A DNA stretch of 64,000 nucleotides from an uncultured candidate division Zixibacteria bacterium (GCA_963713865.1 OY970208.1:1792001-1856000); one strand, 5' to 3'. Counted from the first letter of the stretch, positions 9,390-33,473 are shown. A program made the numbers and translations. The notes: generated by a model not told the origin, from the sequence alone.

Positions 9390-11090
9390 TTACAAATGAC
9401 AGGGTTCGGGACCTCCTTTAAAAAGGTAGTTTATAAGATAAACTACATCTGAAACGGTAACTTTTTGGTCAAGATTGACATCGGCTGATGCTGAGGGATA
9501 AGGTTCAGGTCCTCCCTTAAAAAGATAATTAATCAAGAAGACAACATCTGTAACATTTACTAAATTATCGCGGTTAGGATCCCCACATACAAGAGAGCCT
9601 ACTGTAACATGCCATTCCTTAGAGTCTACTAAAAGATTCTGAGGGTCATCTAAGACCATATCAGTAGAATCAAAAACTGTTCCTTTAATATTGAAATAAC
9701 CAGCAGAAGAGCTTGAAAAGTTAAATTGGTTATCTGAGGATTTTAATTGGTCGTTTACAAACCAGTTTACCTTCAAAGAATGAGTATTAGGTATCAACGT
9801 AGCAAGTTCAAATGGTATAACTGTTAAAGTATCAATACTTAAAGTGTCAGTTGAAGGAGAGTAGCTGTCATATCCCGCTACTCTTTTATATATGGATTTA
9901 ACGGTCTGTTCCCGACAAACTACACAGTAGTCTATTTGTAAAGACCTCATCATACAGGCATCATAGGTAGGGCGGTAAAGATTATTATAAGAGCATCCAA
10001 GATAAGTACCAACCCCGGGGTAACCAATAGTTATCCAGCTCTGCCATCCAGGTTGTGATGAACTAACGTCGCAATTGCAGTTTGACACATTGCCTGGATA
10101 ATTTCCATATAGATATTCATCTGCTAAATAAGCAAAACTATGACCTAACTCATGCATATATACATAAGGTCCCCAGTAACCATTGTAACTTGTGAGATAA
10201 TCGCCACCACTGCCACCATAAGTAGGGTCGTTTACAAGAACTGCAATTTCATCATACCAGGGAACAGACTGCGCTGCAGCATATACGCTTTCATCCTCTG
10301 CACAAATCAATCTGTCAATCCCGGCACACCCGTAATATGTTCCCAGAGCGGTATTGTGATAGACTGGCGGATTAGCTTCAGGATGGTCGGAGCCACTTTC
10401 TTGAGAAATCACCTTAACTTTATATACATTGAAATAGGTGCTGTATTCATTATACGGCGAGACAGAGCTAAACATAAAATTTATATAGTCTTTTACATCA
10501 CTGGTGTAGAGAGCTGTGTCATTAATAGTATATCCATCCCCTAAGAAGACAATATCTATACGGTTGGATGGGTCTCCATTATACATTATGGTATCTACTT
10601 CCCACATTGGATAAAGAGGGGTTTTGTGAACTTGTGCAGCAATCTTGTCCAAATCTGTTTGAGATATTTTAGCGCCTTTTGAATCAAAAATATAAAGATG
10701 TTTTGCATCAGTCAGATAAGGGATTCTGATTTTGAAAAGTTTTTGGTCCTTAAAAATTATCCCACCACTTAAGACTAAAGATGATGTATCCAAGAGGTCA
10801 TAAAATATTATTCTTGGGTCTCTAAAATAGGTCTGAAATAACAGTTTACCCTCTTGTGAATGGATTTCAATTTTATAACCATCTTGTAGAAATGTGGATT
10901 GTAGGGCTGAAGTTGAAATTAATATTGCTTCTTTTGATCTTAGCTCACCGTTATCTAAATTGAAATAAAGGTCAAGGGATTTACGACTGTTTTCAGTTGA
11001 TTGAGAAGCTGAAGGTAAAAAAATAAAAAACAGTGCTAAATAGAAAATCAGAAGAGCAAAGTAATTTTCAACTCGAATGAGCAGCTTCAT
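9390..11090 (-). CDS. secreted M64 (IgA-peptidase-like) metallopeptidase with C-terminal dockerin
   Basis: RIDIVFLGDGYT, HELGHSFAYLADEY, CMMR...CVVC; duplicated DxNxDxxVxVxDVVxLINYLFKGGP. Confidence 0.88.
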   Translation of the reverse strand: MKLLIRVENYFALLIFYLALFFIFLPSASQSTENSRKSLDLYFNLDNGELRSKEAILISTSALQSTFLQDGYKIEIHSQEGKLLFQTYFRDPRIIFYDLLDTSSLVLSGGIIFKDQKLFKIRIPYLTDAKHLYIFDSKGAKISQTDLDKIAAQVHKTPLYPMWEVDTIMYNGDPSNRIDIVFLGDGYTINDTALYTSDVKDYINFMFSSVSPYNEYSTYFNVYKVKVISQESGSDHPEANPPVYHNTALGTYYGCAGIDRLICAEDESVYAAAQSVPWYDEIAVLVNDPTYGGSGGDYLTSYNGYWGPYVYMHELGHSFAYLADEYLYGNYPGNVSNCNCDVSSSQPGWQSWITIGYPGVGTYLGCSYNNLYRPTYDACMMRSLQIDYCVVCREQTVKSIYKRVAGYDSYSPSTDTLSIDTLTVIPFELATLIPNTHSLKVNWFVNDQLKSSDNQFNFSSSSAGYFNIKGTVFDSTDMVLDDPQNLLVDSKEWHVTVGSLVCGDPNRDNLVNVTDVVFLINYLFKGGPEPYPSASADVNLDQKVTVSDVVYLINYLFKGGPEPCHL

Positions 11091-11522: not shown

Positions 11523-12185
11523 TCATTTTTTAGTATGCAGATCTGTTATCCCTTTACGAATAGCATACTTTACTAATTGAGCTACTTCATGAATATCTAA
11601 TTTCTCCATAATATGAGAGCGGTGAGCATCCACTGTCTTGGCACTGATAAAAAGTTTAGCCGCCACTTCTTTATTGGTATATCCTTCGGCAATCAACTGC
11701 AGTATTTCTCTTTCCCTTGAGGTTAAGAGGGTATAAGGTTCTTTTTCTGCCCTTTCAGTTTTTCCAAGAGAAGCTTCTATAACTGATCTGGAAATAGAAG
11801 GGCACAGATAGTATTGATTGTTATAAACTGCGCGAATGGCAGAAACCAGTTCCTCAACTGCAACATCTTTTAAAACATACCCGGAAGCACCAGAGTGAAG
11901 TGCCTGGAGCACGTATTCATCATCCCGGTACATAGTCAAGATTAGTATTTTTACCTCAGGAAGTTTCTTTTTTATCTGCCTGGTGGCTTCAAATCCATTT
12001 AGATTAGGCATACCGATATCCATCAGAACTACATCTGGTTTGAGCCTAAAAGTTTCTTTTAAAGTTTCCGGACCATCACTGGTTTCACCTATCACCTCAA
12101 TATCTAGTTGAGATGCAAGCAGGGAACGAATTCCCTGTCTCAATATCTTGTGATCATCAGCAATCAGTATTTTTATTTTACTCAA
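11523..12185 (-). CDS. NarL/LuxR-family response regulator
   Basis: REC domain (ADDH, MDIGMP) and LTSREREILQLIAEG...KTVDAHR HTH. Confidence 0.93.
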   Translation of the reverse strand: MSKIKILIADDHKILRQGIRSLLASQLDIEVIGETSDGPETLKETFRLKPDVVLMDIGMPNLNGFEATRQIKKKLPEVKILILTMYRDDEYVLQALHSGASGYVLKDVAVEELVSAIRAVYNNQYYLCPSISRSVIEASLGKTERAEKEPYTLLTSREREILQLIAEGYTNKEVAAKLFISAKTVDAHRSHIMEKLDIHEVAQLVKYAIRKGITDLHTKK

Positions 12186-14491
12186 TTAATCTCCTTCCAA
12201 GGAAGAGATATGTCTAATTTAGTGCCTCTTCCTTTATTTGAAATGATTTTAAATTTTCCTCCTAAAAGCTCTGTGTTTTCTTTCAGCCTGAACAAACCGA
12301 AACCGTGAACATATGGTAAATTCTCAAGTTCAAACCCGACTCCATTGTCTTGAATTATTATACGTGTAATGTTACCTTTTTTATAAAGAGAAACAGATGC
12401 CCGCTTTGCCTGGGAATGTTTTGCCACATTGGTTAAACCCTCCTGGATTATACGATAGATAGTGGTTTCAAATTCCGGAGGAAACTTATAATCCAGCTTT
12501 GGTATTTTAACTTTTATTTTAAGATTAGTTCTTAACTGGAAGCTGTCTATATACCAGCGAATGGTTGAAACAAGTCCAAAATGATCTAAAATAGGAGGCC
12601 GCAGATCTGAAGTTAAATTACGAACATTTTCCAGACTCTGAGAGGCTAATTTCTCGCATTCTTCGAGCTTATCTCTTATCAGAGTTTGTTGGTCTGAGAG
12701 AGTGCGCTGGCACATCTTCAAGTCAAATTTGATAGCGGTTAAATCCTGGGCGATTACATCATGTAATTTACCAGCCAGGATTTTTCTTTCATCTTCCTGT
12801 GCATTTATGATCCGGAGTGAGAGTTTCTCTAATTCCTTAGAATGCTTTTTCGAAAGCTCCATCAAACGGGCATTTTCAACTGCCATGGAAAGCTGGTTAG
12901 CTATGGCTTGGGCTAATTTTATTTCAGATTCTGTGAACTCATATTTTTTTGTGATGCTATTTAGGGCTAGGACCCCTAATAATTTGCCTTCTAAAATGAA
13001 AGGAATAGAGAGGACCGATTTAATACTTCTTTCCCTGAAATATTTCTTTTCTCTGGAAGAGAGAGAAGATTTAGCTACATCTAAGACGCTGAATATTTGC
13101 CTTGTCTTGATTCGTTTGATAATATCAGGAAAATCCTCTACACTTTTTGGATAATTCTCAAGTTTGGGTAGATGCTTAACCCTGGAAAAGTGGGTAAACA
13201 AAAGGTGATCACCTGTATTCTGATCAATTATCATCGATACAGCACGGTCCACTCCTAACAATTCGACAGTCTTTTTAGTAACTAATCTGAAAAGTTTTTT
13301 TAAGTCTAATGTTTGTGATAGGGCTTTGCTGATTTCTAAAAGAATACTCTGTTCATTAAATTGCTTTTCTAAAGCCTCAGATTGCTTTTGTATTTGTGTG
13401 CTTTTCTCCTGGAGATCCTGCATTAGTTTGGCATTTTCTATAGCTAAAGAAGCCAGATTAGCAATAGTCTGGCAAAGCTTTATCTCCGAGTCAGCAAAGA
13501 GATGGTAATCTTTTATTCTGCTTACCTGAAGAACTCCAGTCATCTTTCTGTCAGAGGAAAGTGGTAGTATCAGAGTAGATTTTATCCCGCTATCACGTAA
13601 ATATTTTCGAGCCCCGGGGGTTAGTGAGGTTGATAAAATATCTTCAGTTATGAAGAAGTTCTTTTTTTGAAGTTGTTTGTAGATATAAGGGAAATTAGCT
13701 AATGTGTATTTTCTCCCCACGTAGAAAGAACCATCTTTACCTTTTCCGAAGGATACAACTTCTCTGGAAATGTAGATTGATCTTATAACTCCCTGCTTTT
13801 GTCCTGGCTCGAAAGTGCTAATTGTGCACCGGTCCATTTTCAGGAGTTCGCAGGTTTTTTGAGTAATGAGGTTGAAAAGTTCCTGCAAATTTAAAGTCTG
13901 GAAAAGGGATTTGCTGATATTCAGAATAGCATTTTGCTGGTCATATTTATTTTTTATATCCTTTAAGAGATTAGCGTTCTTAATTGCTATCCCTACTTGA
14001 TTGGCTATGGTACAGCAGAGGTTTATGTCTGACGAGGAGAAAGGAGTTAAATTCTCGACTTTACTTAGATGAAATGCACCTAAAGGTTTCCGGTTTATAA
14101 AAATAGGAATCGCTAAAAAAGTTTTCATATTTAAATATTTAAAGAGCTTTTGCTCTTCGGGGGTAAATTTGGCCTTGTCATGAATAAAAAGATGAGCTAC
14201 TTTTCCACTCATAAGTTTTTGAGCAATGTGAGGGTATTGAATTACCTTAAACTTCATACCATTAATTGAAGGATAGGTAATCTTTTTACGATAAGTATAA
14301 ACAATCTCATGAGCATCTCTTGCAGTATTGAGCAATCCTATGGAACAACGGTCAGCCTTGAGAGCTTGGGCAGTCATTCTACAGGACATCTCAAGGATTT
14401 CATCTAAATTTAATGTCCGAGAGACTGCCTGGCTTATCTTTAGAACTGTATCGAGTTTTTTTTCTTTTGGAATTTGAAAACTTTTATCCAT
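12182..14491 (-). CDS. cytoplasmic triple-GAF sensor histidine kinase (HisKA_3/NarX-like)
   Basis: Three GAF repeats; EDERKILAGKLHD, QEGLTNVAKHS, DNGVGF, GFGL, GRGT. Confidence 0.9.
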   Translation of the reverse strand: MDKSFQIPKEKKLDTVLKISQAVSRTLNLDEILEMSCRMTAQALKADRCSIGLLNTARDAHEIVYTYRKKITYPSINGMKFKVIQYPHIAQKLMSGKVAHLFIHDKAKFTPEEQKLFKYLNMKTFLAIPIFINRKPLGAFHLSKVENLTPFSSSDINLCCTIANQVGIAIKNANLLKDIKNKYDQQNAILNISKSLFQTLNLQELFNLITQKTCELLKMDRCTISTFEPGQKQGVIRSIYISREVVSFGKGKDGSFYVGRKYTLANFPYIYKQLQKKNFFITEDILSTSLTPGARKYLRDSGIKSTLILPLSSDRKMTGVLQVSRIKDYHLFADSEIKLCQTIANLASLAIENAKLMQDLQEKSTQIQKQSEALEKQFNEQSILLEISKALSQTLDLKKLFRLVTKKTVELLGVDRAVSMIIDQNTGDHLLFTHFSRVKHLPKLENYPKSVEDFPDIIKRIKTRQIFSVLDVAKSSLSSREKKYFRERSIKSVLSIPFILEGKLLGVLALNSITKKYEFTESEIKLAQAIANQLSMAVENARLMELSKKHSKELEKLSLRIINAQEDERKILAGKLHDVIAQDLTAIKFDLKMCQRTLSDQQTLIRDKLEECEKLASQSLENVRNLTSDLRPPILDHFGLVSTIRWYIDSFQLRTNLKIKVKIPKLDYKFPPEFETTIYRIIQEGLTNVAKHSQAKRASVSLYKKGNITRIIIQDNGVGFELENLPYVHGFGLFRLKENTELLGGKFKIISNKGRGTKLDISLPWKEIN

Positions 14492-14672: not shown

Positions 14673-17600
14673 TTATTTCATCAAGCACATCTTTCTGGTC
14701 TGGCTGTAATTTCCAGCAGTCAGTTTATAGAAATAGATACCAGAGGCAACTCTTTCATCTGAGCTATTGATTCCATCCCAGATTACTGTGAAAGTACCAG
14801 CTGGAAGGTTAGCATCTATCACGGTCTTAACTATTTGACCGGATAGATTGTATATTTTTAAGCTAACCCGAGAATCCTCAGGCAGAGCAAAACTGATGTT
14901 GGTAGTCGGGTTGAAAGGGTTAGGATAGTTGGGATACAGCGCGAAAGCAGTCGGGATAACCTTGTTGACCAAAGTGGTTTTCACCGGTCTGCCAAAGTTG
15001 TCAACTGCTTCGATCTTATCCAGCGTAGCTCCGGAAACGGTAAGCAGTTCACCAGTTAAGCCAGCGCCGGAGTTCATATAAACCAGAACTTTCATGTTAC
15101 CATCTACTACACCCTGTTCGAACGTCAAGTTGGAGCTGACTTTGCCCTCACCCTTGAAGGTAAACAGAGCTGCACCCAGATTAGCATTAGTAGAAACTTT
15201 GCCCTGGGATACATAGATGGTAGCTAAATCTGAACCTGGAGTCGGTTTCGGTATTGCGGAAGCATCATTCAGAATTATCCTTATCATAAGAATGAAGTCG
15301 GACAAGGAGAGCGGGTACCCGTCAGCATTGATATCGGTGTTGGCAATCTGAACTGGAGGATCGATGGTGAACACGCTGGTGCCATAGATGAAGTAGCTGG
15401 AGAACAATGTCAAGTCTGCTGGGTCATAAGCTATCAGGTTGAGGTTGATATCACCTCTCACCTTCTTGCCTGTGGTGCATATCAAAACACCTCCACAGGG
15501 CTCAAAGCAAACCCTATTCAAGACCTCATTTCCTGGATGATACTGAGTATCGCATTCCGCATAATTGAATTCTTCCGGATTAGAGGAAACATACAGAATA
15601 TATCCAGTTGGATCTGAGAAAGTGTTTTGAGTACACTCCCCTTCGTCCCATTCAAAACATACATTGGTGAAGAAGCCTCTAAGGTTGTTATCATTAGCCA
15701 CCTTAAATTTTACTCTGGCTAATTCTACATAATCTGAGTTAGGTTCTATCGGTATGCCTGCATGCAAATCTTTAATATCGTAAAACCCTAAGAGGAGAAG
15801 TTTATATTTACAGCATCCACACATAGGGCAGGGGAGCTGTCGATAAGTGAAATACTCCCAGTCAGCGGAAAGTCCATCTCCACGAGTAACATTCAAGAAA
15901 TAGAAAATGGTGGGGTCGAATTCAATCCTTAGATCAAATCCACCTATAGGCGTTGAGGTTTTGAGCAAAATCGGTACGGAGACTGTATCTCCAGGATTTG
16001 CACAATCGACTTCACCGATTTTGACATAGATGTCACAGGCGCAATTCTGGACAGTTACATAAACCGTGTCTATTACGTATGCTCCACAATGATCTGTAAC
16101 TCTGAATACCACCTTATGAGGATTGTTTAAGGTGTCTGAAGGAGATGGTATCCAGGACCATTCTCCCGTTAAAGGTGGTTTTCCATTACGTGGAGGGAAA
16201 TCACCCACGCCGGAGAGTTTTTCTAAAGTGATGTTATAGTCTTTATCCGGATCGTCTCCCTTCACAGCGAATTTAGCTGTATCACCCAGGCAGGCACTTA
16301 TAGTCTGAGGCACAACAAGGGTTGGTAGACTATTAATGGTTATAATCCAGGTAGCGGTATCATAATCCGCAGCTCCACACCCATTGGTTACCTTATATAC
16401 ATAATTATAAGTTCCAGATGAGGTGATATTGAATTGCACATTAGCTGAGACATTATTGACACCTTTCTTGGGTGTTGGTATCCCTGAACCTTCTAAGGTT
16501 ATGGTATCTCCAGGATCCGGATCAGTAGCAGTCACGGTGAATCCGATAACTCCGGAAGTACATAGGAATTTAGTTGAATCCGGGCTGGTAACAACCGGCG
16601 GGCTGTTTACGGACTTGTTGACTATAACGGTATCCTTGTCTAAGGCACCGCAGGAGTCGGTTACCGTTACGATGATGATATCCGGCACAGAAGTAGTAGC
16701 AGTATAATAGACTGAATCGCCGGACAGCGTGCCCTTATTGGTACTCTTAGACTGGATGTTGTTGTCGGTATCAGAGAAAGTAAACGGCTTCACGCTAATC
16801 GTAGCCGGCAGTGAGCAGAGGGCGATATTTTTATCAGCCGGGCTGGTAACAACCGGCGGGCTGTTTACGGACTTGTTGACTATAACGGTATCTTTGTCTA
16901 AGGCACCGCAGGAGTCGGTTACCGTTACGATGATGGTATCCGGCACAGAAGTAGTAACAGTATAATAGACTGAATCGCCGGACAGCGTGCCCTTATTGGT
17001 ACTCTTAGACTGGATGTTGTTGTCGGTATCAGAGAAAGTAAACGGCTTCACGCTAATCGTAGCCGGCAGTGAGCAGAGGGCGATATTTTTATCAGCCGGG
17101 CTGGTAACAACCGGCGGGCTGTTTACGGACTTGTTGACTATAACGGTATCCTTGTCTAAGGCACCGCAGGAGTCGGTTACCGTTACGATGATGGTATCCG
17201 GCACAGAAGTAGTAACAGTATAATAGACTGAATCGCCGGACAGCGTGCCCTTATTGGTACTCTTAGACTGGATGTTGTTGTCGGTATCAGAGAAAGTAAA
17301 CGGCTTCACGCTAATCGTAGCCGGCAGTGAGCAGAGGGCGATATTTTTATCAGCCGGGCCAGTAACAACCGGCGGGCTGTTTACGGACTTGTTGACTATA
17401 ACGGTATCCTTGTCTAAGGCACCGCAGGAGTCGGTTACCGTTACGATGATGGTATCCGGCACAGAAGTAGTAGCAGTATAATAGACTGAATCGCCGGACA
17501 GCGTGCCCTTATTGGTACTCTTGGACTGGATGTTGTTGTCGGTATCAGAGAAAGTAAACGGCTTCACGCTAATCGTAGCCGGCAGTGAGCAGAGGGCGAT

Positions 17601-20483
17601 ATTTTTATCAGCCGGGCCAGTAACAACCGGCGGGCTGTTTACGGACTTGGTAACTATAACGGTATCCTTGTCTAAGGCACCGCAGGAGTCGGTTACCGTT
17701 ACGATGATGGTATCCGGCACAGAAGTAGTAGCAGTATAATAGACTGAATCGCCGGACAGCGTGCCCTTATTGGTACTCTTGGACTGGATGTTGTTGTCGG
17801 TATCAGAGAAAGTAAACGGCTTCACGCTAATCGTAGCCGGCAGTGAGCAGAGGGCGATATTTTTATCAGCCGGGCCAGTAACAACCGGCGGGCTGTTTAC
17901 GGACTTGTTGACTATAACGGTATCCTTGTCTAAGGCACCGCAGGAGTCGGTTACCGTTACGATGATGGTATCCGGCACAGAAGTAGTAACAGTATAATAG
18001 ACTGAATCGCCGGACAGCGTGCCCTTATTGGTACTCTTAGACTGGATGTTGTTGTCGGTATCAGAGAAAGTAAACGGCTTCACGCTAATCGTAGCCGGCA
18101 GTGAGCAGAGGGCGATATTTTTATCAGCCGGGCCAGTAACAACCGGCGGGCTGTTTACGGTCACCACCCAGGTAGCAGTATCATAATCTACTACTCCACA
18201 GGCATCAGTTACTTTATAGATGAAGTTATATGTACCAGCAGTTGTTGGTGCCCATTTCTGAGCTCCGGTTAAAGGAGAGGTGCCATTAATCGTGGTAAAA
18301 CTACCAGGGCCTGAGATCTTCTCCAAAGTGAGGTTCTGACCTGTATTCGGATCTGTTGCGCTAACATTGAAATTAACGCTATCGCCCGGATTACATATGA
18401 ACTTGTTATTATCCGGTGCAGTTACAGTTGGTGGAGAGTTTATAGTGATAACATAAGTTGCAGTATCAAAATCATATCTACTGCACTTGTCCACTGATTT
18501 GAAAATAAATTCATAAGTCCCACTGGCAGTTACATAATATTTCAACACACCTGAAAGAGGTGGATAACCGTTGAGCATGTTGAAAGTCCCTGGACCAGAG
18601 TACTTATATAAGGATATGGTATCATTAGGATTACCATCCGTGGCTGTAACTGTGAATCTTATGGTGTCAGGACCGCATAAAAACTTATTTGAATCCGGTG
18701 CAGAAACGACTGGAGGAGGATCTAAAGATATTATCCAGGTAGCAGTATCATAATCTACGGCACTACAAGCATCCGTTACTTTATAGATGAAGTTATATGT
18801 GCCTGCAGCTGATGGTGCCCATTTCTGAGTTCCGGTTAGAGGAGAAGAACCATTTACTGTTGTAAAACTACCAGGACCTGAAACCTTTTCCAAGATCAGG
18901 TTCTGACCTGTATTCGGATCTGTTGCATTAACATTGAAATTAACGCTATCATTCGTATAGCATATAAATTTGTTGCTATCCGGTGCTGTTACTGAAGGCG
19001 GTGAGTTAAAAGAGATAACCCAAGTAGCAGTATCCTTATCAGTAGCACCGCATTTATCTGTTACAGTATAGATATAATCATAAGTTCCCGCAGAGTTAAT
19101 ATAGATTTTAATATTGGCAGATAAGGGTGAAAGTCCCTTAATCGGAGTAGCTATCCCGGGACCAGAGAGAGTTAGAGTATCACCAGAGTTTGGATCAGTG
19201 GCAGTAACGGTGAACCGGATGGTATCCGGTCCACAGAAGAACTTGGATGAATCCGGGCCGGTAACAACCGGCGGGCTGTTTACGGTCTTGGTGACTATAA
19301 CGGTATCCTTGTCTAAGGCACCGCAGGAGTCGGTTACCGTTACGATGATGGTATCCGGCCCGGAAGTAGTAGCAGTATAATAGACTGAATCGCCGGACAG
19401 CGTCCCTTTACTGGTACTCTTAGACTGAATGTTGTTGTTGGGGTCAGAGAAAGTAAACGGCTTTACGCTAATCGTAGCCGGCAGGGTGCAGAGTGCGATA
19501 TTTTTATCAGCCGGGCCAGTAACCGTTGGAGCAGAGTTCATCGTAATAATATAAGTGGACGTATCATAATCAACCTTGCCACATTTATCTGTGGCTTTGA
19601 AGATGAAATTATAAGTCCCACTGGCTGTCACATAGTATTTTAACAAACCGGATAAAGGAGAGGTACCAGTTACAGTATTAAAAGTCCCTGGTCCTGAGGT
19701 TTTTTGTAATGTCAGGCTGTCACCAGCATCTATATCTGTAGCAGTAACGGTAAACCTGATTGTGTCAGGGTTACAAAGTATTTTGGTTGAGTCGGGAGCA
19801 GTTATCACCGGCGGGTTACCAAGAGAGATTGCACCCACAATCATATCATTGTGATCCATGTTAGCATCGGTGTGGTCATCGTCGATATAGATGAGATAGT
19901 CAAAGTCTCCGCTGGTAGTGAAATCTTCAGTGAAGGTGTCAAAGAAATATGTGGCACCAGTCCCTTTAAAGGCACTCACATCATAAACCATGAACCACTG
20001 GTGTTCACCGACAGTCGACCCCCGGGTTAGCATTCTTTCACTAAACAGATAAGAATCGTTGCCATCGTAATGTCCGTTACCATTCTGGTCGTTGAGAAGC
20101 CAGAGACCAATCCTGGCCCCGGCAGTAATATTGGTAGTGTCTTTAGCACCGGCAGCGTCTGGGCCACTGAACACCAGCACCGTGTTGTGCCCAACTCCCA
20201 AATCGGTGTAGTAGCCAAAGCGATTGACATTGTCCCACTCAGTGTATTCTTGTAGAAGCTTCCACTCCTGCTTGCCACTACAGAAGCTAATCAGAACATC
20301 CTGCTGGCTAGAAGCCAGGGGAGTCTGTAAATTGCCATTTACGTACAAACTTGGTACGGCTCCAGTGGTGTTAGGTAACTCTACATACCGGGAGTCAGCT
20401 CCTAAACTCTCCGTCACATTGAAGACCCATAGGAATAAGGTTAAGATATATACGAGTCCAAATAGCTTTAGCTTTTTTCTCAT
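14673..20483 (-). CDS. giant secreted scaffoldin/adhesin-like protein: DUF4114-like N-domain, many Ig/cadherin-like repeats, cohesin-like domain, dockerin-like pair, FlgD-Ig/T9SS-like tail
   Basis: Signal peptide; NSPPxVT repeats; PGDTVSVPILL...GGFDLRIEFDP; RGDINLN...TDINADG; NYPNPFNP tail. Confidence 0.8.
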   Translation of the reverse strand: MRKKLKLFGLVYILTLFLWVFNVTESLGADSRYVELPNTTGAVPSLYVNGNLQTPLASSQQDVLISFCSGKQEWKLLQEYTEWDNVNRFGYYTDLGVGHNTVLVFSGPDAAGAKDTTNITAGARIGLWLLNDQNGNGHYDGNDSYLFSERMLTRGSTVGEHQWFMVYDVSAFKGTGATYFFDTFTEDFTTSGDFDYLIYIDDDHTDANMDHNDMIVGAISLGNPPVITAPDSTKILCNPDTIRFTVTATDIDAGDSLTLQKTSGPGTFNTVTGTSPLSGLLKYYVTASGTYNFIFKATDKCGKVDYDTSTYIITMNSAPTVTGPADKNIALCTLPATISVKPFTFSDPNNNIQSKSTSKGTLSGDSVYYTATTSGPDTIIVTVTDSCGALDKDTVIVTKTVNSPPVVTGPDSSKFFCGPDTIRFTVTATDPNSGDTLTLSGPGIATPIKGLSPLSANIKIYINSAGTYDYIYTVTDKCGATDKDTATWVISFNSPPSVTAPDSNKFICYTNDSVNFNVNATDPNTGQNLILEKVSGPGSFTTVNGSSPLTGTQKWAPSAAGTYNFIYKVTDACSAVDYDTATWIISLDPPPVVSAPDSNKFLCGPDTIRFTVTATDGNPNDTISLYKYSGPGTFNMLNGYPPLSGVLKYYVTASGTYEFIFKSVDKCSRYDFDTATYVITINSPPTVTAPDNNKFICNPGDSVNFNVSATDPNTGQNLTLEKISGPGSFTTINGTSPLTGAQKWAPTTAGTYNFIYKVTDACGVVDYDTATWVVTVNSPPVVTGPADKNIALCSLPATISVKPFTFSDTDNNIQSKSTNKGTLSGDSVYYTVTTSVPDTIIVTVTDSCGALDKDTVIVNKSVNSPPVVTGPADKNIALCSLPATISVKPFTFSDTDNNIQSKSTNKGTLSGDSVYYTATTSVPDTIIVTVTDSCGALDKDTVIVTKSVNSPPVVTGPADKNIALCSLPATISVKPFTFSDTDNNIQSKSTNKGTLSGDSVYYTATTSVPDTIIVTVTDSCGALDKDTVIVNKSVNSPPVVTGPADKNIALCSLPATISVKPFTFSDTDNNIQSKSTNKGTLSGDSVYYTVTTSVPDTIIVTVTDSCGALDKDTVIVNKSVNSPPVVTSPADKNIALCSLPATISVKPFTFSDTDNNIQSKSTNKGTLSGDSVYYTVTTSVPDTIIVTVTDSCGALDKDTVIVNKSVNSPPVVTSPADKNIALCSLPATISVKPFTFSDTDNNIQSKSTNKGTLSGDSVYYTATTSVPDIIIVTVTDSCGALDKDTVIVNKSVNSPPVVTSPDSTKFLCTSGVIGFTVTATDPDPGDTITLEGSGIPTPKKGVNNVSANVQFNITSSGTYNYVYKVTNGCGAADYDTATWIITINSLPTLVVPQTISACLGDTAKFAVKGDDPDKDYNITLEKLSGVGDFPPRNGKPPLTGEWSWIPSPSDTLNNPHKVVFRVTDHCGAYVIDTVYVTVQNCACDIYVKIGEVDCANPGDTVSVPILLKTSTPIGGFDLRIEFDPTIFYFLNVTRGDGLSADWEYFTYRQLPCPMCGCCKYKLLLLGFYDIKDLHAGIPIEPNSDYVELARVKFKVANDNNLRGFFTNVCFEWDEGECTQNTFSDPTGYILYVSSNPEEFNYAECDTQYHPGNEVLNRVCFEPCGGVLICTTGKKVRGDINLNLIAYDPADLTLFSSYFIYGTSVFTIDPPVQIANTDINADGYPLSLSDFILMIRIILNDASAIPKPTPGSDLATIYVSQGKVSTNANLGAALFTFKGEGKVSSNLTFEQGVVDGNMKVLVYMNSGAGLTGELLTVSGATLDKIEAVDNFGRPVKTTLVNKVIPTAFALYPNYPNPFNPTTNISFALPEDSRVSLKIYNLSGQIVKTVIDANLPAGTFTVIWDGINSSDERVASGIYFYKLTAGNYSQTRKMCLMK
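16581..18160 (-). repeat. six near-identical 258-bp (86-aa) tandem repeats plus a partial unit; a seventh related copy at about 19255-19523
   Basis: Unit boundaries at 18158, 17900, 17642, 17384, 17126, 16868, 16610; few substitutions between units. Confidence 0.95.
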
Positions 20484-20529
20484 TTTTTTTCCCTTGGTTA
20501 GGGGTTATATATATTTAACATCATATTAT

Positions 20530-20545
20530 CGCAATTTAAGTGCCG
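20530..20545 (-). promoter_or_regulatory. sigma54 -24/-12 promoter of the giant gene
   Basis: Minus strand CGGCACTTAAATTGCG, GG-N10-GC. Confidence 0.65.
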
Positions 20546-21034
20546 ATTTAACCAGAACAGTTATCAATTTTTTTCATCTGCATATCTATTTGTCAATTAA
20601 CGATATATCGAACTGTTTTAAAATCACAAAAGAATGTCTCAAAATGCTATGCATGATAAATCACAAAAACTGAAAAATATTTCAATATTACACTTAAGCT
20701 AATTTCTAAAAGAACAAATATTTTACTCATAAATAAATAAAAAAAGATAAAACTACACACTTGAGATTTTTAAAATCTTTTTTGAGGACTTAAAATTTTC
20801 TAAAAAGAGGTAACGCCTTACACCTTTTACACTTGCAATATAATCTGCCATTTTTTTTTGTCAAGGATTTTCTTTATATTTCCAAACTTTTTTTATTAAA
20901 ATAATTTTGTAGCTAACTGATTGTATATCTACGGCTTACCTTTTCCAACCTCAGGAGTTTACTTTACATTAATATTTAATGCTAGTTAGGTCTAATAAGA
21001 TTTTCAGATAATCCGTTATAAACTGAAATAATTC

Positions 21035-21063
21035 TTGACAAAATTTAGCATTTGGATTATTTT
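21035..21063 (+). promoter_or_regulatory. sigma70-type promoter
   Basis: TTGACA-17-TATTTT upstream of 21183. Confidence 0.45.
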
Positions 21064-21182
21064 ATTTTAAAAGAACAATGAAGCTGATCTTTTCGACTAA
21101 TCTTTAACTAAGGAGAACAATTTAAAAACTGCTTTTTACTTATGAGTGTAATATTTTAACCTAAAGGACAAGGAGGTTTAAG

Positions 21183-23132
21183 ATGAAGAAGGTCGTAATA
21201 GCTTTTGGGGTGATATTGCTTGTTCTCTTTCCTTACTTTGCCAAAGCTCAGGATCCTGGTGTGGCTGATACAGCTATAGTGCAGTGTTTAGAGAAGGTCA
21301 GGCCTAATTCCCAGGTAATTTTGAACGTTTATATAATTAATGATGAACACTTAGGTGGATTTGCGATCCCTATTGCCTTTCCGGATTCCGCTACTAATCT
21401 GGATATCATTTGTGATTCTATAAGCTTTGTAGGCACAAGAGCGGCTGATGCTGGCATTAAAAGCGATACGGCATATATAAATAATGCCAAAAACAGGCTT
21501 CTTATTTTTGCGGCCTGGATTGGAGGAGATTTAGCTCCAGGGAATGGTTCGGTTGCCAAACTATTTTTCAGAACCGGTCCTGCCTGGGATTCAACCATGT
21601 ATGTTAAAGTTGATTCCATTTTATGGCCTCCTATTTCCAGTTTAGAATTCACCAAGACGGATGGTAATGGATTCTTACCTGCTTTTATTAAAGGATGTCT
21701 GGGTAAGCCAGCTGTTCCCACCATTACAGTTTCCTCTCCCAATGGAGGGGAGAACTGGAGAGTGGGAAGTGTACATGATATAACCTGGAGTTCTCAAAAT
21801 TTTACCGGGAATGTAAAAATAGAATATTCCACCAATGCCGGTTCAACCTGGATTACAATTATCTCAAGCACAGTTGATGATGGGGTCCATCCCTGGGCTA
21901 TACCTAACGCACCTACAACTCAAGGCAGGGTAAAAGTCTCAGGCGCAGCCACTGGAACTCCATCTGATATAAGTAATGCTAATTTTACCATAAGCACTGC
22001 TCCCGTTATTACTGTTCCAGGTATGCAAACTGTCTTATGCGATACTCTCAACTGTGATACTCTTCGTTTTGAAGTCTATGCCACAGATGGGGATCCTGCA
22101 GATATCCTGACTATTACCAAATACGGGGTAGGAGATTTTTATACCGTACCTCATCCAACCCCTGATACTGGATTCTTGAACTGGGTGCCAGTGCCTGCAG
22201 ATACTGGGACCGGGGTTGGGATATATATAGACACCTTCGTAGTGAATGATGGGACAGGTTTAGCTGATACTGATATGGTTACGATTAAGGTAAAACCTCG
22301 CCCGGTTGTTCCTCCCTCAGGTAACGAAGGTGACGTAAATGGAGATGGAAAAATTAATGTTACTGATGCAATCTTTCTGGTTAATTTCCTTTTTAAAAAT
22401 GGTCCTGAACCAAATCCACCCCCAGCCGGGGATATTAATGCTGATTGTGTTACCACTGTGTCAGATATAGTTTACTTGATTAATTATCTATACAAGGGAG
22501 GTGCTGCTCCAAAGATCAGGTGTAACCCGGGCGATATAGATTATGATGGGTATGTGAATGTTCCAGACGTAATCTATTTTATCAATTATCTCTTCAAGAG
22601 TGGACCTGCTCCCAGATCTATGAAATCCTCAGATGTGAATGCGGATTGCTCTGTGGATATCGTGGATTTGATCTATCTGATAAATTTTCTTTTCCGAGGA
22701 GGTCCTATACCTCAGCCCGGCTGTGTGGAGCCTATGTATAAAGCTATTCCTCCAGCCTTAGCAGAAGTGGAACTTTTTGAACCAAAAGAGGTAAGCGGAA
22801 TCATAGAGATCCCTGTTAATTCGAACTTTGATCTTCCTGTGGCTGGTGTTCAGATCCTGATAGAATTTGACCCATCTCAATTTGAACCTTTGGATCCGAT
22901 TTTGACAGAGAGGAGCCAGAACCTTTCACTCTTCTCCTCTTATAAAGATAATCATCAGATAATGGGGTTGCTCGATTTACAAGGACAAAATTACATTCAG
23001 CCCGGTACCGGTTCAATCGCTACTCTAAAATTTAAACCTAAGATAGCTAATTACGATTTGAGCCGTTTGAAGATTTCTGAGGCAATCCTGGTGGATAGTG
23101 AAGCTAATACTCTTCAGACTACAATTAAATGA
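21183..23132 (+). CDS. secreted adaptor-like protein: cohesin-like, Ig-like, two dockerins, C-terminal cohesin-like
   Basis: Signal peptide; VILNVYIINDEHLGGFAIPIAF; SPNGGENW Ig domain; four EF-hand-like dockerin repeats; IEIPVNSNFDLPVAGVQILIEFDP. Confidence 0.78.
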   Translation: MKKVVIAFGVILLVLFPYFAKAQDPGVADTAIVQCLEKVRPNSQVILNVYIINDEHLGGFAIPIAFPDSATNLDIICDSISFVGTRAADAGIKSDTAYINNAKNRLLIFAAWIGGDLAPGNGSVAKLFFRTGPAWDSTMYVKVDSILWPPISSLEFTKTDGNGFLPAFIKGCLGKPAVPTITVSSPNGGENWRVGSVHDITWSSQNFTGNVKIEYSTNAGSTWITIISSTVDDGVHPWAIPNAPTTQGRVKVSGAATGTPSDISNANFTISTAPVITVPGMQTVLCDTLNCDTLRFEVYATDGDPADILTITKYGVGDFYTVPHPTPDTGFLNWVPVPADTGTGVGIYIDTFVVNDGTGLADTDMVTIKVKPRPVVPPSGNEGDVNGDGKINVTDAIFLVNFLFKNGPEPNPPPAGDINADCVTTVSDIVYLINYLYKGGAAPKIRCNPGDIDYDGYVNVPDVIYFINYLFKSGPAPRSMKSSDVNADCSVDIVDLIYLINFLFRGGPIPQPGCVEPMYKAIPPALAEVELFEPKEVSGIIEIPVNSNFDLPVAGVQILIEFDPSQFEPLDPILTERSQNLSLFSSYKDNHQIMGLLDLQGQNYIQPGTGSIATLKFKPKIANYDLSRLKISEAILVDSEANTLQTTIK

Positions 23133-23860: not shown

Positions 23861-26233
23861 ATGAATTTACCTTTAATAGAGATTTTCTTCTCGCTGATTT
23901 TACTCCTGCTCTGGTTTACTTTAGTAAATTTGAGAGACAGGTATTTAGAACTCAACCTCAAAGGATGGGGTGAGATGAGCTTGGGTGTCTTTTTTATTTT
24001 CGTAGGAAGCCTGTTAGAATTGAGTGAGAATATCCCTGAGATTCAACCTTATCTATCTGTAAAAAATATGGCATGGGGAGAGTTCTGCAAAATAGCTTTA
24101 TATGTTACAGGTATTATCCTGGTCAGCTTCAGCCCCATAAACTGGCTACCAGCCATTCTAAATGAAAGAGATAGATTTAAGAAAATAAGAAGAAAATATG
24201 TGGAAATAAATTCTTTTTTATCGGAGCTGGATAAATCATCTAATCAGGTTGAGGTTAAAGATGCCTTGAGCTCCCTGCTTGACTTTTCCCTGACATATCT
24301 TTGCCAAGAACTCAAAGCAGAATCTGGAGCAATCTTCCTTTTCAATGATTTTGAAAGGGAGTTAGCCTTAACACATTCCCTGGGTTTAGCCCCAACGATT
24401 AAAGAAAATGTCAAGAAAATAATGAAAGAGGTAAATATTTTCAAACGTGCTCTAAAGGGTAATTGTGTTGAAACCACAAATGAACTCATAAATTCTGAAC
24501 GAAAATTAGCACTGGCAGTAAAAGATGATAATTTAGAATCCTGTATCTGCATTCCTCTTTATTCAAACGAAGAGCCTATAGGTGTAGTCTCACTGTTCTC
24601 TATGAACAAATATCTTTTTGAAAATCCCGATTCTGAGAATTTATTAGAATGGGCAGGGGTTTTAGGGAGAAGAATCCAGGGATTGCTAATAATAGAGAGA
24701 TTAGAACAACAAAAGAGGGAATTAAAGATAGCCCGGGAGAAAGAGAGAGCACTCAGACTTATAGCAGAAAATTTAGTTGAAGATAATTTTGAAGAGGTAT
24801 TTTCTCGTATAGTAAAAACCGGCGCAGAAATATTTCATCCTTGTGATTGTAAAATTTATCTTCGGGAAGGGGACACTTTATTTTTAAGAGCTACTTCGCA
24901 GACCGAATTTTCAAGAGCTGAGATCTATTTACCTGGATATTGCTGGTTTAAAGAGGCAATGGAAGATAATGAAATAAAATTTTTATCGGATGAACAGGAT
25001 CCAGAACTGAAGGTCAAAGGGGTCAAAAAAGTTGTAGCGATTCCTCTTAAAATGAAAGATAAAGCTTCCGGGTTAATCGTTTTTGAATGTAAAACCAAGC
25101 AAGATAGTCTCTCTTTGTCTGAGCTGGACTTTGTTAAAACCTTAGCTCTACAGGCTACAGTTGCCCTGGAGGGGATTATCTTAAATCAGATCTTGGAGAA
25201 GAAGGAAAAGATGATCATCTCATTTTTAGATTCATTGGAGGATCGAGTAACAGTTCATGATAGAAATCAGAGAATTATTAAAATAAATAAAGCTGGTTTA
25301 AAGCTTTTGGATCTGACCGAGGAAGAGGTATTGGGAAAGAATTGTTTTCAGGTGCTATATCAACAAAACCAGCCTGAAGTCTGCCCCTGTTATCTTACTT
25401 TCAAAGAGAAAAAGCCTTATTTCAAACAGATTAAATTGGTTAATGAAAAATCAAAAGATGAAGGATTATTAAAAATCTGGACCTATCCTTTACTGGATGA
25501 TAAAGGGGAGGTGGAGATGGTGGTGGAATATGCCAAATTTGAAAAAGTTCCGGGATCTCTGTCTAAAACAGATAAAGGTAAAAGGGAAGTTTCCAGAGAG
25601 TTCTTCAATGACCTGAATAATATCTTAGCCGGGATTTTAGGCAATGCTGAGCTTATAAGGTTTCAGATTAAATCCTATAAAGATTTAGCTTTTAATACCA
25701 TTGCGGATCAGATGAGTTTGATAGAGGAATTAGTGATCGAAGGAAGCAAACTTATCCGTGAGGTAAAAGGCGAGACGGAGGAGATTCCAGAGAAAAAAAT
25801 GATCTCAGATAAAGAGATTGATATTACAGAAGAGAAGAGGATAGCGGAGAGTCTGAAGATTTTAGCTATAGATGATCAGAAGATAATCCGCGACCTTTTA
25901 GAGAGTATTCTACTGGGATTAGGGCACAGTATAAAAGTAGCTTCTTCAGGTAAAGATGGACTTGAGCTTTTCCAGCGTGATGGCTTTGATCTTGTGATAA
26001 CTGATCTGGGAATGCCAGAGATGTTTGGCTGGGAGGTCTCTCAAAGGGTAAAGGAGATAAGAAAAGAGACACCGGTGGTAATGATAACCGGCTGGGGTGT
26101 AAGTTTTGAGCAGGAGAAAATCAAGGAGTTTGGCGTGGACTATCTTTTGCCAAAACCTTTCAGGGTAGAGCAATTATCCAGACTTTTGGACCTGATCAGG
26201 GATGAGAAGATTCGGAAAAGAAATCAGGTTTGA
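23861..26233 (+). CDS. membrane-anchored GAF-GAF-PAS-receiver signalling protein with degenerate HisKA and no HATPase
   Basis: Three TM helices; FFNDLNNILAGILGNAEL lacks the His; REC domain IDDQ...TDLGMP...KPF. Confidence 0.8.
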   Translation: MNLPLIEIFFSLILLLLWFTLVNLRDRYLELNLKGWGEMSLGVFFIFVGSLLELSENIPEIQPYLSVKNMAWGEFCKIALYVTGIILVSFSPINWLPAILNERDRFKKIRRKYVEINSFLSELDKSSNQVEVKDALSSLLDFSLTYLCQELKAESGAIFLFNDFERELALTHSLGLAPTIKENVKKIMKEVNIFKRALKGNCVETTNELINSERKLALAVKDDNLESCICIPLYSNEEPIGVVSLFSMNKYLFENPDSENLLEWAGVLGRRIQGLLIIERLEQQKRELKIAREKERALRLIAENLVEDNFEEVFSRIVKTGAEIFHPCDCKIYLREGDTLFLRATSQTEFSRAEIYLPGYCWFKEAMEDNEIKFLSDEQDPELKVKGVKKVVAIPLKMKDKASGLIVFECKTKQDSLSLSELDFVKTLALQATVALEGIILNQILEKKEKMIISFLDSLEDRVTVHDRNQRIIKINKAGLKLLDLTEEEVLGKNCFQVLYQQNQPEVCPCYLTFKEKKPYFKQIKLVNEKSKDEGLLKIWTYPLLDDKGEVEMVVEYAKFEKVPGSLSKTDKGKREVSREFFNDLNNILAGILGNAELIRFQIKSYKDLAFNTIADQMSLIEELVIEGSKLIREVKGETEEIPEKKMISDKEIDITEEKRIAESLKILAIDDQKIIRDLLESILLGLGHSIKVASSGKDGLELFQRDGFDLVITDLGMPEMFGWEVSQRVKEIRKETPVVMITGWGVSFEQEKIKEFGVDYLLPKPFRVEQLSRLLDLIRDEKIRKRNQV

Positions 26234-32873: not shown

Positions 32874-33473
32874 CGGAGGTCTTCAGACCTCCATTAGATG
32901 TGGAAGGCTGAAACCTTCCGCTACAAAACCCAAATGGTTAAACGAAAAAGAAATAGACTTAGTCTGTCCCTTTATAAAGGGATTAAAGCTTATTTTGTCA
33001 CTATCTGCACTAATAATCAGCAGAAGGTTTTTACAGATATGGAAACTATTTCTAAGCACCTCAAGATCTTAAATGCTTGCTGTAAAAAAGAAAATATTTT
33101 TGTTTGGGCATATTGTTTTATGCCCGATCATCTTCATCTACTTCTAATTGCTAAAGAAAACTCAGACCTAATTAAATTCATCCGAATATATAAACAACTC
33201 AGTGGATATGAGTATAAGAAGGCAACTGGAAAAGTCCTGTGGCAAAAAAGTTTTTATGACCACATCTTAAGAAAGGAAGAAAATATTCCTGAAGTGATAA
33301 AGTATATTTTAGAAAATCCAGTGAGAAAAGGCTTAGTAGAGTTTTTCGCGGACTATCATTTCTCCGGTTCTTTAGAGTTTGGGAAAGAGATCTTTAAAAT
33401 GTAGCGGAGGTCTTCAGACCTCCAGGGGCTGGGATATGAAGAAAAATTGTGGAAAGCTGAAGCTTTCCGCTAC
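32870..33473 (+). mobile_element. RAYT element: tyrosine transposase flanked by inverted GTAG-REP doublets
   Basis: REPs at 32870-32892, 32902-32924 (inverted), 33401-33423 and 33451-33473 (inverted); consensus GTAGCGGA(A/G)G-x-TTCAG-x-CC. Confidence 0.85.
32934..33404 (+). CDS. REP-associated tyrosine transposase (HUH/Y1, TnpA-REP)
   Basis: YFVTICT, MPDHLH (HUH), LWQKSFYDHILR, YILENPVRKGL. The ORF-track start 32898 runs through a REP, so 32934 is preferred. Confidence 0.9.
   Translation: MVKRKRNRLSLSLYKGIKAYFVTICTNNQQKVFTDMETISKHLKILNACCKKENIFVWAYCFMPDHLHLLLIAKENSDLIKFIRIYKQLSGYEYKKATGKVLWQKSFYDHILRKEENIPEVIKYILENPVRKGLVEFFADYHFSGSLEFGKEIFKM

Follow-up and report, generated by a model that had tools for sequence, protein, structure and literature searches.

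Clostridial cellulosomes are assembled by cohesin-dockerin pairs. The gingipains (C25) of Porphyromonas gingivalis are type A cargo of the T9SS (type IX secretion system) and are attached to the cell surface after cleavage of their C-terminal domain (CTD). For 'Candidatus Stygibacter' (Cloacimonadota), a cellulosome-like structure for polypeptides and polysaccharides was proposed (Williams et al. 2021, Front Microbiol 12:741077). That paper describes dockerins on S8, C25, GH18 and GH57 enzymes (GH, glycoside hydrolase) and a 3755-aa scaffoldin with cohesins, carbohydrate-binding modules (CBMs) and a T9SS C-terminal domain. The kind of system treated here is already in print for Cloacimonadota, a sister lineage. 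We analyzed a stretch of 64,000 nucleotides (GCA_963713865.1 OY970208.1:1792001-1856000; in the following, the window) from an uncultured sediment bacterium, probably of the phylum Zixibacteria. The window is part of a single-contig genome of 2.72 Mb that is 94% complete. Part of the window is contained in 20 sequencing runs, none of them recorded as RNA. Two divergent open reading frames (ORFs) lie in the window: P0001, with 1936 aa, on the minus strand (14673-20483), and P0002, with 649 aa, on the plus strand (21183-23132). Both are present with the lengths and coordinates given in a first-pass annotation of the window, and its observation of cohesins and dockerins in this gene pair is confirmed. 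We consider it probable that the pair is part of a genome-wide, non-cellulosomal cohesin-dockerin display system.

A literature search found no paper describing a cohesin-dockerin system in Zixibacteria; the sole paper naming both Zixibacteria and the cellulosome was unrelated. A 2024 survey of cellulosome-displaying bacteria (PMC11557425) makes no mention of the terms Gram-negative, diderm, protease, non-cellulosomal or phyla.

Modules of the divergent gene pair

The modules of both proteins were assigned by profile searches and structural models. Folding was based on alignment A1 (20 P0002 homologues) for P0002 and on alignment A2 (11 P0001-type cassettes) for the C-terminal cassette of P0001, which comprises 469 residues. 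The models reached mean pLDDT values (predicted local distance difference test) of 72.8 and 74.6, respectively. In window coordinates, the features of the pair are as follows (Ig, immunoglobulin; HMM, hidden Markov model).

20403-20483, minus strand: signal peptide of P0001, residues 1-27 (hydrophobic N-terminus, by inspection)
19821-20402, minus strand: N-terminal domain of P0001, the presumed distal tip, residues ~28-221 (~190 residues; no Pfam match)
16050-19820, minus strand: stalk of P0001, ~14 Ig-like (Big_9-type) modules, residues ~222-1478 (Pfam Big_9, E 1.3e-24)
15477-16043, minus strand: cohesin of P0001, residues 1481-1669 (Pfam Cohesin and fold match)
15258-15464, minus strand: divergent dockerin of P0001, residues ~1674-1742 (hhalign, alignment A2 and model)
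14964-15227, minus strand: beta-sandwich spacer domain of P0001, residues ~1753-1840 (model strands, cassette residues 286-373, pLDDT 83-91)
14688-14927, minus strand: type A T9SS sorting domain at the C-terminus of P0001, residues 1853-1932 (Por_Secre_tail, 31.6 bits)
20484-21182, no strand: spacer between P0001 and P0002, 699 bp, AT-rich (from the sequence), presumed to be a shared promoter region
21261-21707, plus strand: N-terminal cohesin of P0002, residues 27-175, divergent 'N-class' (genome cohesin HMM and fold)
21714-22298, plus strand: two Ig-like linker domains of P0002, residues ~178-372 (model beta strands with low pLDDT; kept in A1)
22329-22724, plus strand: tandem dockerins of P0002, residues 383-446 and 449-514 (Pfam Dockerin_1, 69.7 bits, two stretches)
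22755-23129, plus strand: C-terminal cohesin of P0002, residues 525-649 (Pfam Cohesin, 27.6 bits; cut-off 24.1)

After its signal peptide, P0002 has one cohesin at each end, and between these lie two Ig-like domains followed by two dockerins. The adaptor build proposed earlier for the 649-aa protein, with two cohesins and two dockerins, is therefore present; Pfam detects the C-terminal cohesin and the dockerins, and the N-terminal cohesin is recognized by its fold. This N-terminal domain has no Pfam match, and an HMM of the genome's own cohesins finds it with 28 bits (independent E-value 1e-6). In the model, residues 27-175 match the solved type I cohesin 6kgc_A with a Z score of 17.7 and a root-mean-square deviation (rmsd) of 2.4 Å (136/144 residues aligned), and 1ohz_A with Z 16.1. 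The C-terminal cohesin scores 98.7 bits with the genome's own HMM and was modelled at pLDDT 92-96; it was barely sampled in the list of fold matches. Both dockerins belong to the main class of the genome (own HMM 97.3 and 93.6 bits; model pLDDT 80-91), and the loops and helices of type I dockerins (PF00404) are seen in alignment A1 and in the model. P0002 is best read as an unanchored adaptor that would multiply the available cohesin sockets. Since its dockerins are of the main class, it should compete with the cargo for the same sockets.

P0001 starts with a signal peptide and an N-terminal domain, continues with ~14 Ig-like modules spaced 86-95 aa and closes with the C-terminal cassette, in which cohesin, divergent dockerin, beta-sandwich and type A T9SS sorting domain follow one another. 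No Pfam family was found for the N-terminal domain, for which an Atlas look-up gave a weak DUF4114 lead (score 0.80). Six of the Ig modules are encoded by a 258-bp tandem unit (6.1 copies, 98% identity, 16580-18160), where the GC content is raised. The copy number of this repeat may be unstable or mis-assembled.

A cohesin-like domain had been placed at about 15480-16035, which is borne out by Pfam and by the fold, with model boundaries of 15477-16043. When residues 1468-1761 were scanned alone, the Pfam Cohesin profile scored 35.8 bits against a cut-off of 24.1. In the cassette model, residues 14-202 (P0001 1481-1669) match the type I cohesin 5nrk_A with Z 16.3 and an rmsd of 2.1 Å (141/143 residues aligned). 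P0001-type cohesins carry a Cys-rich insert, LPCPxCGCCKYK (window 15750-15800, residues ~1563-1575), which is kept in the closer orthologues and, as far as the alignments show, is not present in solved cohesins. The insert may bind a metal or form a disulfide knot.

The segment directly behind the cohesin had been described as a dockerin-like pair. Indeed both of its repeats align to a dockerin profile, but the segment is divergent and is missed by Pfam: it gave no Dockerin_1 match at E<=1, and none with an HMM of the genome's 65 Pfam-detected dockerins. A profile of the 11 orthologous segments matched the genome dockerin profile in hhalign with a probability of 96.4% and E 1.2e-9. This alignment spans both repeats, and the segment is therefore, as judged from profiles, a divergent relative of the dockerins and not a canonical member. 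Two motifs resembling Ca loops are present, each followed by a helix and each one residue longer than the canonical loop, and the segment falls outside type I as defined by PF00404, whose profile is silent here. The loop residues are invariant in the 11 orthologues. In the model the helices are present and the loops have pLDDT values below 50.

The CTD tail ascribed to P0001 was recovered by two profiles: in addition to Por_Secre_tail, NCBIfam TIGR04183 matches with 42.9 bits (cut-off 23). P0001 combines this C-terminal sorting domain with an N-terminal Sec signal, as type A T9SS cargo does, which agrees with its earlier description as an anchored protein; P0002 and the dockerin cargo have no sorting domain. 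Known type A cargo loses its C-terminal domain and is attached to the cell surface by the C-terminus that this creates. By analogy, because the T9SS anchor of P0001 is C-terminal, its cohesin and divergent dockerin would lie at the cell-proximal base, with the Ig stalk and the tip projecting outward. The Ig stalk of the 'stalked' cohesin protein is real, but the cohesin would sit at the anchored base and not out on the stalk. P0001 is best read as an adhesin-like Ig-repeat fibril with a docking site at its base.

The identity of the cohesins is given by profile and fold together. The P0001 cohesin and the C-terminal domain of P0002 exceed the cut-off of the cohesin profile (PF00963), and the P0001 cohesin and the N-terminal domain of P0002 superpose on solved cohesins as nine-stranded beta-sandwiches. 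The models matched the type I cohesins 1ohz, 5nrk and 6kgc with Z scores of 14-18, and the sequence identity to solved cohesins is 9-24%. The possibility that the cohesin-like segments are unrelated Ig or CBM folds, which would have spoken against the first-pass annotation, fails, as the segments fold as cohesins. The HMM check with PF00963 and PF00404 suggested there matched both families above cut-off in the pair.

Dockerin cargo and cohesin anchors across the genome

Pfam finds 66 Dockerin_1 and 17 Cohesin matches in the genome. They fall in 69 ORFs, of which 58 have a dockerin alone, 7 a cohesin alone and 4 both modules, i.e. 62 dockerin ORFs and 11 Pfam-cohesin ORFs. All 69 ORFs were scanned with Pfam (E<=1e-4 for family calls), and the 21 least-annotated ORFs also with NCBIfam. 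Among the 62 dockerin ORFs there are 15 firm peptidases and 2 borderline ones (14 by Pfam, 1 by NCBIfam and the 2 borderline). The firm peptidases comprise S8 (6), C25 (2), M1 (2), M14 (2), C1 (1), M64 (1) and one MXAN_6640-type HExxH metalloprotease, which scored above the NCBIfam cut-off; both borderline cases are M6-like. Other dockerin ORFs encode a cell-wall amidase (1), SBBP propellers (10), FG-GAP (3), Kelch (1) and beta-helix (4) proteins, cadherin/Big_9 giants (2) and the cohesin-plus-dockerin proteins (4), and ~20 have no other recognised domain. A genome-wide count of cohesin and dockerin proteins with their cargo, as had been proposed, thus yields 62 dockerin and 11 cohesin ORFs, with peptidases and binders as cargo. 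The phrase 'built for peptidases' in the first-pass annotation fits these 15 firm and 2 borderline peptidases, but is overstated, since more ORFs are non-catalytic (propeller, beta-helix, cadherin-like) or have no known domain. Four of the dockerin ORFs besides P0002 lie in the window.

9390-11090, minus strand: M64 peptidase with C-terminal dockerin, cargo (Peptidase_M64 E 1e-35; Dockerin_1 41.9 bits)
39634-41595, minus strand: S8 subtilase with C-terminal dockerin, cargo (Peptidase_S8 E 1.8e-30; Dockerin_1 32.8 bits)
59495-62230, minus strand: 911-aa protein with C-terminal dockerin (Dockerin_1 30.4 bits; no other family)
62551-64000, minus strand: SBBP beta-propeller with C-terminal dockerin (Pfam SBBP and Dockerin_1; the ORF exceeds the window, 629 aa in full)

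These four proteins had been listed as dockerin-bearing, and each has a Dockerin_1 match (30-44 bits) that places its dockerin in type I. The assignment of the 911-aa protein as a beta-helix protein did not hold, as no beta-helix family was found in it by the Pfam or NCBIfam scans.

None of the 62 dockerin ORFs was assigned a glycoside hydrolase family at these thresholds (0/62), which extends the earlier statement that none was recognised to the whole set. Searches of the whole genome (94% complete) for GH13, GH5 and GH18 gave no match; GH13 was found in 13/14 control genomes. The genome seems to be poor in glycoside hydrolases altogether, and the lack of sugar-active cargo would therefore reflect the organism and not a selective rule of the system.

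The main-class dockerins are very uniform, and their two repeats are nearly identical to each other. In 55/62 ORFs at most 20 residues separate the dockerin from the C-terminus, and 52/62 have a Cys among the last 12 residues (in the window, e.g. 9390-9420 and 59495-59530). A consensus Cys is also present in the second Ca loop, which suggests that the two residues may form a disulfide staple. The C-terminal Cys could also be a processing or attachment site. By inspection, most dockerin ORFs start with a Sec-type signal segment without a lipoprotein Cys.

The cohesins were found mainly on proteins with a T9SS sorting domain. Por_Secre_tail stands at the end of 9/11 Pfam-cohesin ORFs. The T9SS machinery is represented by SprA_N (E 7.8e-35) in a 1987-aa ORF, and together the SprA translocon and the sorting domains mark the organism as a T9SS-bearing diderm, in line with the diderm lineage assumed earlier. 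The genome has 27 sorting domains at E<=1e-5, and 9 to 11 of these 27 ORFs carry cohesin or cohesin-like domains. The main scaffoldin locus (genome 1,036,770-1,064,357) lies ~750 kb before the window and consists of ten adjacent genes on one strand. Six of them encode cohesin or cohesin-like proteins with T9SS sorting domains, and five Pfam-cohesin anchors fall within 1.037-1.054 Mb. Two anchors have the order cohesin-dockerin-cohesin-CTD with a second dockerin class, and one gene is a paralogue of the P0001 cassette. Two cadherin/Big_9 giants, one of 1517 and one of 1815 aa, are interleaved with these genes, as are another two dockerin proteins. The reading of the pair with its clients as anchoring scaffoldin, adaptor and cargo is upheld as far as the modules are concerned, but they do not form a local set; they are one corner of a genome-wide system of 62 dockerin and 11 cohesin ORFs.

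At genome 1,086,922-1,091,053, a scaffoldin with two cohesins and a CTD is apparently split by a one-base frame change. Its upstream frame of 214 codons is an N-class cohesin, 85% identical to the N-terminal cohesin of P0002. In two relatives (G123 and G152) the same scaffoldin is one fused ORF of ~1370-1390 aa. Either the sequence is in error at this point or the frameshift is real.

Sorting domains also occur directly on enzymes and binders. Sorting-domain proteins without a Pfam cohesin include S8 (2), M4, M28, M6-like plus FG-GAP, FG-GAP, SBBP and a multihaem cytochrome, and a 5'-nucleotidase/metallophosphatase in the window (2545-4713) carries the sorting domain as a direct tag, with no dockerin. 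The S8, M6-like, SBBP and FG-GAP families occur with either a dockerin or a sorting domain; therefore the two tags look like alternative routes to one place. Dockerin-tagged ORFs stand to cohesin-less sorting-domain ORFs at ~62:17.

A tree of 25 cohesin-like domains of the genome contains several deep groups. N-class cohesins, found by the genome's own HMM in the N-terminal domain of P0002 and in at least 4 further dockerin proteins, always stand directly behind the signal peptide. The cohesin-dockerin-cohesin anchors have C-terminal cohesins that cluster with the C-terminal cohesin of P0002; the P0001 cohesin clusters with its main-locus paralogue, which is 71% identical over the whole cassette. 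Such proteins could in principle chain together: P0002 and the other cohesin/dockerin proteins would then form a self-assembling extracellular matrix, with no hierarchy of anchor, adaptor and cargo. Four ORFs have both Pfam modules, at least 4 more dockerin ORFs have an N-class cohesin-like domain, and the repeats of the main-class dockerins are almost identical, a feature that in known dockerins allows two binding orientations. However, there are several divergent classes of cohesin, a pattern that in cellulosomes is usually a sign of separate specificities and of assembly in a set order, and we regard a mesh of this kind, the version put forward in the first-pass annotation, as improbable.

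Conservation and genomic setting

Of 151 genomes sampled from the phylum, all at least 80% complete, 147 contain Pfam cohesins; the number of matches is 1-11 per genome versus 15 here. Dockerins at E<=1e-7 were found in 28/31 genomes, with 0-39 matches versus 56 here; the dockerin expansion is therefore specific to the lineage. Within the order, P0002 has matches at E<=1e-20 in 15/15 genomes. Near-full-length matches reach up to 69% identity in the family, and the C-terminal half is 45-58% identical in the order's other families. The P0001 cassette was found in 14/15 genomes of the order at E<=1e-40, and the divergent arrangement of P0001 and P0002 is kept in three other genomes of the family (G152, G123 and G092).

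The part of the cassette that contains the cohesin and the divergent dockerin (269 aa) was used in a full HMMER search of 1.84 billion representative proteins. This search returned 1351 matching proteins at the loosest threshold (E<=0.001); 873 of them passed E<=1e-10 and 107 passed E<=1e-30. In many cases a single stretch spans the query from end to end and lies 200-290 residues ahead of the C-terminus, in proteins of up to 3815 aa. Ten cassette proteins, chosen from 150 listed matches for length and spread, were scanned for other domains: 7 of these 10 proved to be giants with Ig/PKD repeats, and in 8 the last domain is of the FlgD_ig or Por_Secre_tail type. This distribution places P0001 in a large class of T9SS fibrils that carry the cassette at their base.

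One neighboring gene recurs beside P0002.

23861-26233, plus strand: GAF-PAS-receiver protein downstream of P0002 (Pfam)

The gene stands downstream of the P0002 orthologue in 4/10 related loci examined, with 53-90% identity. Signalling genes flank the pair on both sides, a triple-GAF histidine kinase and a LuxR-type response regulator at 11523-14491, and on the other flank the protein at 23861-26233, which has the order GAF-GAF-PAS-receiver. An IS200-like (Y1_Tnp) transposase gene lies at 32898-33404 of the window, among housekeeping genes.

Proposed display, export and comparison with known systems

In the display system that we consider probable, proteins ending in a type A sorting domain would be exported by the type IX system and fixed on the outer face of the outer membrane. 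The nine sorting-domain proteins with Pfam cohesins would serve as sockets, and the ~60 Sec-exported proteins with one uniform C-terminal dockerin as plugs held on them. We infer this binding, its pairing specificity, the surface location and the physiological role. P0002 would plug into anchored cohesins through its two main-class dockerins, and its two different cohesins would offer more sockets. The cargo, i.e. S8, C25, M1, M14, C1, M64, M6-like and HExxH peptidases together with propeller, beta-helix and cadherin-like proteins, would form a proteolytic and adhesive coat, which would suit feeding on detrital protein.

Several observations weigh against this display reading. The dockerin proteins have no T9SS sorting domain, and the genome has only two secretins, both within type IV pilus clusters: PilMNO-AMIN-PilQ at genome 1,858,531-1,874,000, and an MSHA-like cluster (secretin, AAA_22, TPR, MshE-type ATPase and T2SSF) at 2,047,000-2,064,000. 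With cargo that lacks a sorting domain and secretins that are linked to pili, display leaves the passage of the cargo across the outer membrane unexplained. The role of the dockerin adjoining the P0001 cohesin is not accounted for either. Some genomes of the phylum have 3-6 cohesin matches and 0-2 strong dockerin matches; the counts are uncoupled, so some cohesins may have other partners. Lastly, the phylum name rests on labels of metagenome-assembled genomes (MAGs), and the closest relative, 91% identical, belongs to a MAG labelled 'uncultured Ignavibacteria bacterium'. Many of the NCBI-named homologues are labelled Zixibacteria, and all 150 sampled relatives fall within one class, which fits a single-class phylum; the phylum is probably Zixibacteria.

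The uncoupled counts also bear on whether the modules pair at all. The dockerins might be Ca2+-dependent stabilising or ligand-binding tails and the cohesins generic beta-sandwich spacers, so that the proteins would only share domains; non-cellulosomal cohesins and dockerins of unknown partner are reportedly widespread (Peer et al. 2009). This is very improbable, as both module types are expanded in one genome, occur together in single proteins and in one 27-kb scaffoldin locus, the ~60 dockerins are extremely uniform, and the cohesins are concentrated on anchor proteins.

Neither secretin could be taken as a marker of a type II secretion system, since both belong to pilus clusters, and no GspC/L/M-type type II genes were seen beside either of them. 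Export of the cargo might instead be solved by the anchors themselves. In such a piggyback, the cohesin-CTD proteins would bind dockerin cargo already in the periplasm and take it with them across the T9SS translocon, after which the cargo would be retained at the surface. The dockerin would then be a trans-acting secretion-and-anchoring tag, with one sorting domain serving many cargo proteins. Such co-export extends the display model and does not exclude it. It would fit the 62 dockerin ORFs, mostly with Sec-type N-termini and with no sorting domain on any of the enzymes, as well as the pilus-linked secretins (PilMNO-PilQ and MSHA-like) in a genome with no recognisable type II system. Cohesin or cohesin-like domains on 9 to 11 of the 27 sorting-domain ORFs and paralogous cargo families with either tag point in the same direction. 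According to a review, the T9SS translocates folded proteins through a very large barrel (PMC9251779). However, no case of T9SS co-export was found in a literature search for T9SS piggybacking, and in a review from that search the word 'piggyback' refers to peroxisomes. A non-covalent complex with cargo of up to ~1800 aa would have to pass the pore; alternatively, the cargo could be exported by a pilus-type machine, in vesicles or by a system that was not recognised. We regard co-export as unlikely, and the tag function of the dockerin equally so, with both standing above the mesh and the unpaired modules. If true, co-export would be the first such mechanism described for type IX secretion and would explain how a genome without a recognisable type II system comes to have 62 secreted proteins that lack a CTD. 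The widespread cassette of cohesin and divergent dockerin that precedes the sorting domain of giant Ig-repeat proteins (873 representative clusters, E<=1e-10) would then be part of the co-export machinery.

If the display system exists as proposed, the cohesin-dockerin principle would be the main way to dress a diderm surface, with peptidases and binders as cargo and a type IX anchor. The near-universal cohesins in a phylum widespread in sediments bear on the attack on detrital protein by uncultured sediment bacteria. For T9SS biology, the question is posed how dockerin proteins without a sorting domain cross the outer membrane. The several cohesin-dockerin classes in one diderm genome may be natural orthogonal pairs that could serve surface display.

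The system of 'Ca. Stygibacter' is alike in several respects. Both are found in uncultured diderms of the FCB group (Fibrobacteres-Chlorobi-Bacteroidetes), signal-peptide enzymes including S8 and gingipain-like C25 carry C-terminal dockerins, a cohesin protein ends in a T9SS C-terminal domain, and both proposals are inferred from MAGs alone. In contrast to the GH18 and GH57 cargo there, a GH family is present in 0/62 dockerin ORFs here. Where 'Ca. Stygibacter' has a single 3755-aa scaffoldin with tandem cohesins and CBM2/CBM3, about ten small anchors are present here, each of them with 1-2 cohesins, and the gene pair gave no CBM match. Several cohesin-plus-dockerin adaptors and the basal cohesin-dockerin cassette on an Ig fibril are additional here, in another phylum.

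With the clostridial cellulosome (C. thermocellum CipA and the anchoring scaffoldins; 1ohz, 5nrk, 6kgc) the system shares the folds of the modules and Dockerin_1 with two Ca loops. It also shares the logic of anchor, adaptor and cargo with a C-terminal plug. The cellulosome, however, belongs to monoderms and is anchored by SLH domains or sortase, whereas here a diderm uses a T9SS sorting domain. In cellulosomes, glycoside hydrolases make up most of the cargo and a CBM is part of the scaffoldin; here, neither was found. Indeed, dockerin-borne glycoside hydrolases are not the main cargo, and no CBM or SLH family that would mark a CBM scaffoldin anchored by SLH or sortase was detected in P0001 or P0002. 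Reuse of the plug and socket for other substrates is known from the amylosome of Ruminococcus bromii and the mucinolysome of Limousia. Those centre on glycan-active enzymes in Firmicutes, whereas the present cargo consists of peptidases and non-catalytic binders in a T9SS diderm. The non-cellulosomal cohesin 2xdh of Archaeoglobus fulgidus matches both cohesin models (Z 15.1 and 13.9).

The type A sorting domain on the anchors, the arsenal of C25, S8 and other peptidases and the presence of SprA are shared with the type A T9SS cargo of Bacteroidota. There, the sorting domain stands on each enzyme, whereas here most enzymes carry a dockerin and the sorting domain stands on the cohesin proteins.

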